Notes under the pieces: model-generated
The model's input: only the letters and a program-made list of their open reading frames with translations
Database searches by the model: none
What the model was told of the DNA's origin: nothing
Made by a program: the position numbers and the translations under genes
DNA from: a virus
DNA length: 24,885 nt
UHGV virus genome: UHGV-1445333
Direction: 5' to 3' (one strand)
Part shown: piece after piece, positions 9,777 through 12,877 of the stretch
How positions within the stretch are numbered: the first letter of the stretch is position 1
Layout of the letters: each line of letters begins with the position of its first letter

Positions 9777-10310
9777 GTCTTACCCCCAATAAGGGGATTT
9801 GCTCTATTTAATTAGGAATAAGGTCGATTACTGATAGAACAAATCCAGGCTACTGTGTTTAGTAATCAGATTTGTTCGTGACCGATATGCACGGGCAAAA
9901 CGGCAGGAGGTTGTTAGCGCAACCTCATGCCACCCGCTTTCACGAAGGTCATGTGTAGAAGGCCGCAGCATAACTATCACTGATGAATCCAGGATAGCCA
10001 GTGGCTACGGCCAAGTTTGGGTTGTGGCGGTCGGTGCTGAACTCCGACTTAATGACGATAGGCGTGTACCGACGCCTCGTTTTACTTCCTCCGCTTTCAC
10101 GGCTTCACCCTAGACCAGCTTTACGAAATCCTCGTAAACCTAACCGCGGCAGATATGACCGGCACGGTGTGCCATATCACGGACCGGCGGGTGTCTCGTT
10201 CACCTGATTAACGCATCAGCCTGCGTATTCACCACAACGATAAGAGCACTGCGCGGCACCTTTCACCAATTCCGCGAGGTCTGCGGGTTCAATGCTCTTA
10301 CCTGTTGTGC

Positions 10311-10355
10311 AAACAAAAAAGCCACCGTTGCAACTTAAGAGTCACTAACGGCAGC
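10311..10355 (-). terminator. tR'-like late-leader terminator
   Basis: Minus-strand GCUGCCGUU...AACGGUGGC (9-bp stem with two G-U pairs, 17-nt loop) followed by UUUUUUGUUUG; the following GCACAACAGGTAAGAGCATTGA matches what I recall lying just after lambda tR'. Confidence 0.5.
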
Positions 10356-10365
10356 TTACCCTCTA

Positions 10366-10395
10366 ATTATGGCTAAATGGCTAATTGCATGTCAA
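10366..10395 (-). promoter_or_regulatory. Candidate late promoter pR' (-35 TTGACA, 18-bp spacer, -10 CATAAT)
   Basis: Minus strand: TTGACA at 10395-10390 and CATAAT at 10371-10366; the -35 lies in the last codons of Q and the -10 just past its stop; start would fall about 45 nt upstream of the tR' U-tract. Confidence 0.45.
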
Positions 10396-10891
10396 GGTTT
10401 TTAACAGCAACATGCTTAACTTTCTCAACACGTTTACGCATTTTGAAAGCATTTTGCATTGGCTGGTATAAAACAAATAATGACGCCTTCAGGATGTCGT
10501 CAATTTCGTTTCTACAGGTTGCCAGTGAAGGTTTTCTCCATCCCTCGCCACCACGTCCACACATCTTGCGTGGCTTTGCAGTCGCGTGATAGTAGGATGC
10601 AATTGCTCGCTTAGATGAACCATGAGCGTAGTAGCTGAGGAGGATGCCAAAGGCTTTCTTGTCAATGTACATGACGGAATCGACGACCTGAGAAATCAAC
10701 ATTCCATCATCATCATTACACATTGGCCTTGTCATAACTCTTCCCGGCTCTACGCTCTCCATGAACTTCGCTATTACGCTGCTCATGCGCTTTTCCAGGC
10801 GACCTGAATAAACCCATGCGCCCCACAGTTCAAGCCAGCCATTCAGCCAATCGTGCTGCTCTTTGGTGAGGTTTAGTTCTCTTATGCCCAT
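10373..10891 (-). CDS. Late-gene antiterminator Q, non-lambda type, 172 aa
   Basis: Sits between ninI and the pR'/tR'/S region exactly where Q lies in lambdoid phages; sequence is unlike lambda Q; Cys/His-containing C-terminal region. Family assignment is by position and general resemblance only. Confidence 0.6.
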
Positions 10892-11737: not shown

Positions 11738-12336
11738 GCGGCCTCACTTCTGCTATTTCGCAGGTCTTTGAGTTTCTGTTGGTACTCTGCCTTGATCGCC
11801 TTGCACTCTTCGATAGTCCAGCGATGGCGGTTATGGTTTGATTCGATTTCGTCTACTGCTTCCTGCCCGATGCGGCTAATCAGTTCGACGCGATACGGAA
11901 CGAGATTTCCGCTTTTGTGCTGGTTGCACACCACGCATTGCTTGTGAATATTGCGTTCATCAAATCGGAGTTGAGGTGCCGCAGCAGTTGTCCGGTAATG
12001 TCCGGCATCCCACTGAGCAGACGTGAGCGTTCCGCACGAGATACATGGTAAGTCGCGGTCTCTTTCTCTGATGAAGGCGTTTACGGCTTGTTGGGCTTGT
12101 TTAATCCAGTAACTGCGGGGCTTTAAGGCGAGTTTTCGAATCTTAAGTTTATCTTTCTGTTTCTGCTCCTCTCGTCGCCGTTTCTTCTCTGCTGCTTTTT
12201 CCGCTTTTTCGCGTTCTTTGCTTCGTCGTTCGAGTGCTATCTTTGTTCCACAAATCTCATTACACCAATATTGATTTTGATATTTTGGTATAAACCATTC
12301 ATTGCAACATTTACATTTCCTTCGATAGATTCGCAT
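11734..12336 (-). CDS. ninG: NinG (Rap) recombination endonuclease, about 200 aa, with a divergent N-terminus
   Basis: From [18 protein letters not shown]... to the C-terminus it matches lambda NinG from memory; start set at ATG 12336 (strong SD AAGGAG, 5-nt spacer); the first 28 residues ([29 protein letters not shown]) differ from lambda but keep the Cys pattern. Confidence 0.8.
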
Positions 12337-12850
12337 AAGTGCTCCTTTCGTTGCCGGAAAAATCACCGTAATACTTATCTCGGGCTTCTTCAGCAACTAG
12401 TACCGCTAACTCCAGATCATCAAAGCATCCGAAGTGTTTACTCTTGCCATGGAAACCTAGCCTAACATTCCATTTTTTCTGTCGTTTGTGCCAAGTAACT
12501 CCTCTGCAACCTGATTTGCTATTCTTTCGGATCCTTATATTTCTTGAATTTTCTATTGGCAGGCATTCTCTTAAATTTTCTGGCCTATTGTCGGTCCTAA
12601 TTCCATTAACGTGGTCAATTTGACCAGCAGGCCAACGATTATGAGTTATGTAAAAAACTAAGACGTGAGTTTTATATCTACGCCCATCTATCATGATCAT
12701 TGAATAACCGTTGGAATCAAAAGTTCCAGCAACACTATTTAATGCTATCCTTCCCTGAGTGGGAACTTTCCATCTAAATACCCCGGTAGATTTATCGAAA
12801 CTTAGTAACTCAAATATCCTTTTAACAGTTAAATCTTCTCTTTTACGGTT
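12255..12850 (-). mobile_element. Putative endonuclease insertion cassette within the 5' end of ninG (approximate boundaries)
   Basis: About 0.6 kb of visibly AT-rich sequence carrying the HNH ORF and a replacement ninG 5' end, flanked by sequence I recognise as lambda-like (ninF/ninG start upstream, ninG from GTKIALERR downstream). Confidence 0.5.
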
Positions 12851-12877
12851 ACATCGTCTTCGCGCTGGTTTAGCCAT
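12311..12877 (-). CDS. HNH homing endonuclease with AP2-like DNA-binding domain, 188 aa, fused to the first 9 codons of ninG
   Basis: HNH motif ([26 protein letters not shown]) plus AP2-like segment ([15 protein letters not shown]...[17 protein letters not shown]); starts MAKPARRRC, the lambda NinG N-terminus, at the ATG overlapping the ninF stop; AT-rich relative to neighbours. Confidence 0.8.

Follow-up and report, generated by a model that had tools for sequence, protein, structure and literature searches.

The DNA around the end of the antiterminator gene Q in the virus genome UHGV-1445333 (24,885 nt, referred to here as the window) is a phage 21-type late switch, a system already known and annotated in close relatives. 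We consider it very probable that it switches on the late genes by antitermination in an E. coli phage of the P22-like (HK620-like) kind whose Q module is of the phage 21 family; the window overall is that of a P22-like, HK620-like phage. The hallmarks of the phage 21-type cassette are found on the minus strand: a homologue of Q21, a sigma-70 promoter that overlaps the 3' end of Q, two direct 8-bp subsites between the −35 and −10 with the second abutting the −10 (at the level of sequence), a −10-like pause element at +2 to +8 and a terminator within about 50 nt of the start (Table 1). The work presented here covers sequence anatomy, homology, the linkage between Q type and repeat type, and the mosaic joints with phage lambda. 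Directly behind the terminator, and adjoining the switch without being part of it, lies a second and structurally conserved RNA, which is treated separately below.

Table 1. Features of the late switch and its surroundings in the window, with the corresponding lambda segments
Feature	Position in window	Strand	Lambda position	Description
nin region up to Q start	12252-10889		42525-43888	98% identity to lambda
Q module	10888-10321		none	no similarity to lambda
Segment at right joint	10320-10289		44776-44807	90.6%; identical 23-mer TGCACAACAGGTAAGAGCATTGA
Unalignable interval	10288-10027 (262 nt)		44808-44935 (128 nt)	unalignable save one 25-nt patch
Lysis region	10026-8748		44936-46235	92.6%, through S, R and most of Rz
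Q antiterminator gene	10891-10373	minus		172 aa; phage 21 family, Sf6/phage L subtype; ORF
pR' −35 hexamer TTGACA	10395-10390	minus		promoter scan; aligns with annotated phage 21 pR' −35
pR' spacer	10389-10372	minus		18 nt
QBEu, upstream Q-binding subsite AATTAGCC	10386-10379	minus		in register with phage 21 QBEu ATTGAGCA
QBEd, downstream Q-binding subsite ATTTAGCC	10378-10371	minus		in register with phage 21 QBEd AATGAGCA
pR' −10 hexamer CATAAT	10371-10366	minus		phage 21 counterpart AACACT
Discriminator TAGAGG	10365-10360	minus		
Predicted late transcript start, G	10359	minus		inferred: 7 nt past −10, aligns with annotated phage 21 start
Sigma-dependent pause element TAAGCTG	10358-10352	minus		+2 to +8; sequence and position identical to annotated phage 21 SDPE
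Intrinsic terminator tR'	10357-10315	minus		17-bp bulged hairpin 10357-10319 and U6 10320-10315
Post-terminator hairpin P1	10309-10233	minus		5' arm CACAACAGGTAAGAGCATTG (lambda-identical 'boundary'), 3' arm CAGTGCTCTTATCGTTGTG, variable tip
tRNA-shaped four-way-junction RNA	10236-10023	minus		directly past P1
Closing stem TGTGGTG/CGCCACA	ends of 10236-10023	minus		7 bp
'D' hairpin ACGCA-GGCTGA-TGCGT	10226-10211	minus		
Variable domain				in place of anticodon arm; about 160 nt in window, 28-164 nt across copies
'T' hairpin GTCGG-AGTTCAGCA-CCGAC	10048-10030	minus		abuts closing-stem 3' strand; loop 9 nt
Conserved lambda-like block upstream of S (CUS-3 'bsq3')	10026-9777	minus	from 44936 onward	92.6% to lambda
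Holin gene S, lambda type, first late gene	9776-9453	minus		Pfam PF05106, E = 2.4e-30; lambda homology

The late promoter pR' and the end of Q

A reading made from the sequence alone had proposed a near-consensus promoter, TTGACA-18-CATAAT, astride the Q stop codon, and each of these elements lies where that reading had put it, on the minus strand. With the 18-nt spacer, the two hexamers match the consensus at 11 of 12 positions, the sole match of at least 11/12 that a promoter scan returned from the 24.9-kb window. Since 33 of 100 dinucleotide shuffles of the window also hold one or more matches of at least 11/12, homology, and not the match score, carries the case for pR'. The pR' and tR' region of phage 21, whose elements are annotated with literature citations, is homologous to the one here, and this settles the identity of both.

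The late regulatory region of phage 21 (Q21, pR'21, QBE, SDPE and tR'21) was reportedly described by Guo, Kainz and Roberts in 1991. The phage 21 start and terminator coordinates used here were taken from the GenBank annotation that cites the 1991 paper. Both phages share the order and spacing of the −35, the two 8-bp direct repeats, the −10, the start, the pause and the terminator, with a leader of about 45-50 nt. They differ in that the spacer is 17 nt in phage 21 and 18 nt here, with one extra base between the −35 and the repeats, in that CATAAT is a stronger −10 than AACACT, and in the U-run, which is 7 in phage 21 and 6 here. The phage 21 Q gene ends before the −35, whereas the present Q is 10 aa longer; because the phage 21 stop codon is absent and 10 extra codons are read, its last 10 codons traverse the −35 element and the Q-binding repeats, and its TAG stop (10375-10373, minus strand) falls inside the promoter spacer and within QBEd, which itself overlaps the first base of the −10.

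Annotated relatives carry the same region. GenBank marks pR' and Tr' of HK75 at the corresponding spot, describes that of Sf6 as 'nearly identical to phage 21 late promoter' with P R', qut and t R', and gives the boundary sequence bsq4 at the corresponding region of CUS-3. In the regions of Sf6 gene 59, HK75, CUS-3 and phage L gene 23 the promoter, repeats, pause and terminator are the same as here, and the differences are confined to the cargo behind the terminator: tRNA-Asn/Thr follows it in Sf6 and L, the tR'-to-S interval of HK75 is 447 nt as compared to 535 nt in the window, and CUS-3 and phage Huey match the window throughout.

The terminator tR' and the short leader

The sequence-only reading had further placed the U-tract of tR' only about 45 nt past the predicted start, as against 194 nt in lambda, and the hairpin and its six U residues do end there, with the U6 at +40 to +45. 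The hairpin has a folding energy of −20.2 kcal/mol (z = −2.9), and one of 200 shuffles folds equally well. It was missed by a simple terminator scan of the window, presumably because the bulged stem does not fit a simple stem-loop pattern, and had to be found by folding. The TAAGCTG pause element is embedded in the 5' arm of this hairpin, and the 38-nt core that runs from TAAGCTG through the terminator stem is base-for-base identical to phage 21, with the U-run following directly in both. Given that all elements are collinear and the core is identical, the compact leader is the native leader of phage 21 and not a product of the joint with lambda-like DNA; the idea that compactness was a peculiarity of that joint was therefore rejected, the phage 21 terminator being annotated at +3 to +50.

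The 38-nt core was invariant in at least 120 viral contigs in a scan of IMG/VR, and all or part of the 141-nt switch region occurs in 788 of the 5426 complete E. coli genomes, several of which match it at 100%. Rfam gave no match at gathering thresholds over the whole window, and Rfam 15 gave no covariance-model match at E ≤ 1 over positions 9700-10450; thus, neither the leader nor the interval to S is covered by a known RNA family.

Comparison with lambda shows a common logic in pR', 6S RNA and tR', namely a constitutive promoter after Q, a sigma-dependent pause, a Q site between the −35 and −10, and an intrinsic terminator, and lambda additionally requires a −35-like element (PMC6606751). 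A lambda-type Q with a 6S RNA leader was ruled out for the window, as the stretch 10888-10321 has no similarity to lambda and the leader is about 45 nt long.

Q subtypes and their binding repeats

The Q protein, a member of Pfam family PF06530 (E = 1.3e-25), aligns with phage 21 Q over 162 aa at 85% identity (E = 2e-106) and matches the solved Q21 structures, PDB 6JNX and 6P18, at E about 1e-92 to 4e-92. It is 97-98% identical to the Q proteins of Sf6, HK75, HK629, CUS-3, phage L and many P22-like Salmonella phages, and its similarity to lambda Q was below detection in every search made. The earlier proposal of a non-lambda Q with its own leader is supported by the Pfam assignment, by the identity to phage 21 Q and by the compact leader itself.

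The repeats are of the TTAGCC type here and of the TGAGCA type in phage 21, and differ at three of the eight positions in each subsite; the T..AGC core is kept in both repeats and the same three positions are altered in each. Due to these differences, binding of AATTAGCC and ATTTAGCC by the present Q subtype is something we infer by analogy with phage 21. The base-reading residues of Q21 are H95, A124, R127, R128 and R113 (PMC6606751), and two of these five positions differ in the present Q, which has R95 and N128 in place of H95 and R128. We examined 76 viral loci with a complete Q: TGAGCA repeats go with a 162-aa Q that has R128 (27 loci; residue 95 is H in 26 and Y in one) and TTAGCC repeats with a 172-aa Q that has R95 and N128 (49 loci), with zero crossovers between Q subtype and repeat type. 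This association is consistent with co-evolved specificity, although linkage alone could account for it, as these features of Q and the repeats lie only 30 bp apart. For phage L, both the variant repeats and the fact that Q diverges from residue 94 on had already been noted (bioRxiv 10.1101/2020.10.05.325894).

Within Q, on the plus strand and hence antisense to the gene, TTGCGTGGCTTTGC (10566-10579) fits the CII-binding pattern TTGYN6TTGY. Its position is where the phage 21 record annotates a CII site and the −35 of the antisense promoter paQ.

Mosaic joints and endonuclease insertions

Alignment to lambda placed the phage 21-type Q cassette (10888-10321) between lambda-like flanks, with the right joint at the U-tract, as the sequence-only reading had suggested in locating the junction at tR'. 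The companion claim, that the sequence is lambda-like from the terminator all the way to S, was rejected by BLAST against lambda: lambda similarity covers only 32 nt past the terminator, is lost over 10288-10027 apart from the one 25-nt patch, and returns at 10026. The window thus has in common with lambda the 23 nt past the U-tract and the S-R-Rz cassette.

In order to characterize the joint more widely, 125 leader copies were compared, comprising exact matches to the 38-nt core in IMG/VR and the annotated relatives. Each upstream Q/QBE type, phage 21-like or Sf6-like, was found with tRNA-Asn/Thr downstream as well as with the lambda 23-mer, and the sequences diverge 5 nt past the U-run. This free combining of types, with a switch point 5 nt past the U-tract, indicates that tR' is a genuine and repeatedly used recombination joint. 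An apparent third upstream type among the copies corresponds to the arrangement of HK629.

In HK629 (about 2038-2745 of locus L003) and in 10 IMG/VR loci, a gene for an HNH_3-AP2 endonuclease is inserted exactly between the pR' −10 and the pause element. The insert of the HK629 type brings a terminator of its own and, at the same spacing, its own −10-like/pause-like TATGCTG, after which the original TAAGCTG and tR' follow, and the 'putative pR'' of the HK629 GenBank record sits inside it. The window has an HNH_3-AP2 endonuclease ORF elsewhere, of 188 aa (12311-12877, minus strand), that interrupts the 5' end of ninG. This ORF opens with the first nine codons of lambda NinG (MAKPARRRC); lambda homology is broken at 12848-12253, and the remaining NinG ORF restarts inside. 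The 188-aa ORF appears to be a free-standing homing endonuclease, of the type that is inserted in HK629.

At the other end of the interval, the roughly 250 nt upstream of S are near-invariant across six tR'-to-S length classes, lambda included. Such conservation of non-coding sequence suggests a function, for example in mRNA structure or in the control of S translation.

A structured RNA behind tR'

The lambda-identical 23-mer past tR' is complementary to a second conserved patch, with which it forms a hairpin of some 20 bp, P1. This hairpin folds in lambda as well as in the window (z about −3.4 in each), and between phages its arms are conserved while its tips differ. RNase III processing sites in the lambda late leader are the subject, according to its title, of Daniels et al. 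1988 (cited in PMC7547250), and P1 may be the RNase III site of that leader. In one IMG/VR contig with the same Q, pR' and tR' (L090, 10476-10522), the tip of P1 has a type I hammerhead-like core, CUGACGAG...CGAAAC...GUC; as a hammerhead it was not accepted, the Rfam Hammerhead_1 score of 24.7 bits (E = 9e-4 in a small search) being below the gathering score of 34. No hammerhead ribozyme was found by Rfam at E ≤ 1 in positions 9700-10450 of the window.

P1 is followed by a four-way-junction RNA with the outline of a tRNA, in which the 'D' and 'T' hairpins are near-invariant and have complementary loops (GCUGA/UCAGC). The motif of the 'T' hairpin occurs in at least 120 IMG/VR contigs, and about 90 IMG/VR copies of the RNA are among the matches listed. 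For the analysis of covariation the register was set solely by the two conserved hairpins, so that the closing stem was assessed without bias. Among 80 distinct copies, with 39 different stem sequences between them, each of the seven flanking positions forms a pair in 95-98% of cases; in an alignment of 55 sequences all seven closing pairs have changed on both sides, and 98% of cells are paired as compared to 29-47% with slid partners. Covariation is therefore strong in at least 55 viral contigs. Lambda itself has a degenerate copy with a compensatory closing stem, TGTGCTG/CAGCACA.

In lambdoid phages this RNA lies between tR' and S, a place taken in phage 21 and Sf6 by tRNA-Asn/Thr, and the window likewise has P1 and the tRNA-shaped RNA in place of the phage 21 tRNA genes. 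ARAGORN found no tRNA in the window, and thus the tRNA genes of phage 21 and Sf6 are absent from it; in loci that hold a tRNA gene, no ARAGORN call overlapped a copy of the element. The possibility that 10236-10023 is itself a tRNA gene was rejected, since it has no ARAGORN or Rfam tRNA match, its 'T' loop is 9 nt and the anticodon arm is replaced. Among the matches listed, tRNA genes within 1 kb of the element are on the same strand in 16 of 16 cases, and any tRNA is present in only 19 of 89 loci.

The same architecture is found in the non-lambdoid phages ep3 (1487-1700 of locus L128), IME207 (1431-1650 of L129) and SeSz-2 (1487-1660 of L127). These copies lie in gene-free gaps with promoter-like and terminator-like sequences, as judged by eye, and in IME207 tRNA genes come next after the element. 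Rfam 15 gave no match over the element in eight other loci; in the literature searched, the conserved motif strings had no match, and keyword searches returned no description of the RNA.

Discussion

The mechanism that we propose for the switch follows the one described for Q21 (PMC6606751; bioRxiv 10.1101/651190), and the start site, pausing, termination and Q action are carried over from the phage 21 work by analogy. Host sigma-70 RNA polymerase would initiate at pR', at about G 10359, and sigma region 2 would then re-bind the −10-like TAAGCT at +2 to +7, causing the polymerase to pause. In the absence of Q, the polymerase would resume, transcribe the hairpin that begins at +3 and terminate in the U-tract at about +45, leaving a leader RNA of about 45 nt. 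With Q present, two protomers would occupy the two direct 8-bp repeats and one of them would put its ring into the RNA-exit channel of the paused polymerase. Terminator hairpins would be blocked in the polymerase so modified, which is expected to ignore tR' and later terminators and to continue into the RNA elements behind tR', S-R-Rz and the genes for head and tail.

It is barely conceivable that the hexamers and the hairpin are non-functional products of chance, with the real late promoter elsewhere between Q and S. An 11/12 match can indeed be had from a third of shuffled windows, and the HK629 GenBank record puts its promoter about 160 nt downstream of Q; however, the −35, both repeats, −10, start, pause and terminator are collinear with the annotated phage 21 region, the invariance of the core extends over those at least 120 viral contigs, and the HK629 placement falls within the inserted HNH cassette, which is absent from the window. 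The hairpin and U-tract might instead serve mainly to end early-right (pR) transcription after Q and insulate the lysis genes, with leader termination as a by-product. The terminator does stand directly past the last early gene and is unidirectional for the minus strand, and any unmodified polymerase arriving from upstream would stop at tR' too, which is also compatible with the antitermination switch. Insulation as the main role is nevertheless very unlikely, because the pause element lies in the 5' arm of the hairpin, with constant spacing to the −10 and the repeats, in a layout that is kept across both Q subtypes, and this conserved layout points to selection for the function of the pR' leader. 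Moreover, lambdoid early-right transcripts are made by N- or gp24-modified polymerase and are terminator-resistant, which also counts against insulation.

The terminated leader of about 45 nt could also be a trans-acting regulatory RNA, made constitutively in lysogens, and there is a precedent in StxS of Shiga-toxin phages, likewise a short constitutive pR' RNA ended at tR'. A 74-nt RNA processed out of a longer leader, StxS has been shown to function through Hfq, so that terminated pR' leaders can act as Hfq-dependent sRNAs; the late promoters of phages 21, phi80, 82 and P22 are also on record as giving rise to short RNAs (PMC7547250). The core of the present leader is invariant even where all its surroundings recombine, and a hairpin that ends in a U-run is a typical Hfq-binding 3' end. 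Yet the invariance of the core is already covered by its roles in pausing and termination, and nearly the whole RNA is taken up by one hairpin, with about three free 5' nt for seed pairing; on this evidence we regard a regulatory role in trans as unlikely.

The Q switch itself adds nothing new: one more P22-like phage of E. coli is found to carry a textbook antitermination system whose structures are solved. For annotation, it is of use that the true pR' of the present Q subtype overlaps the end of Q, whereas the HK629 record places pR' elsewhere. The two Q subtypes, which differ at two base-reading residues and at matching repeat positions, provide a natural pair for the study of Q-DNA recognition. 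As to the sequence behind tR', we tentatively propose, with rather less than even confidence, that the 23-mer is more than a recombination scar: it would form the 5' arm of P1 ahead of the tRNA-shaped RNA, a member of a widespread and apparently undescribed phage family, which in lambdoid phages would be synthesized only after Q antitermination. It may act as a processing module, in which cleavage at RNase III and RNase P sites would release the late mRNA from the leader, or else as a tRNA mimic or decoy. If confirmed, this structured RNA would be the new result, being absent from Rfam and present in many unrelated phages.
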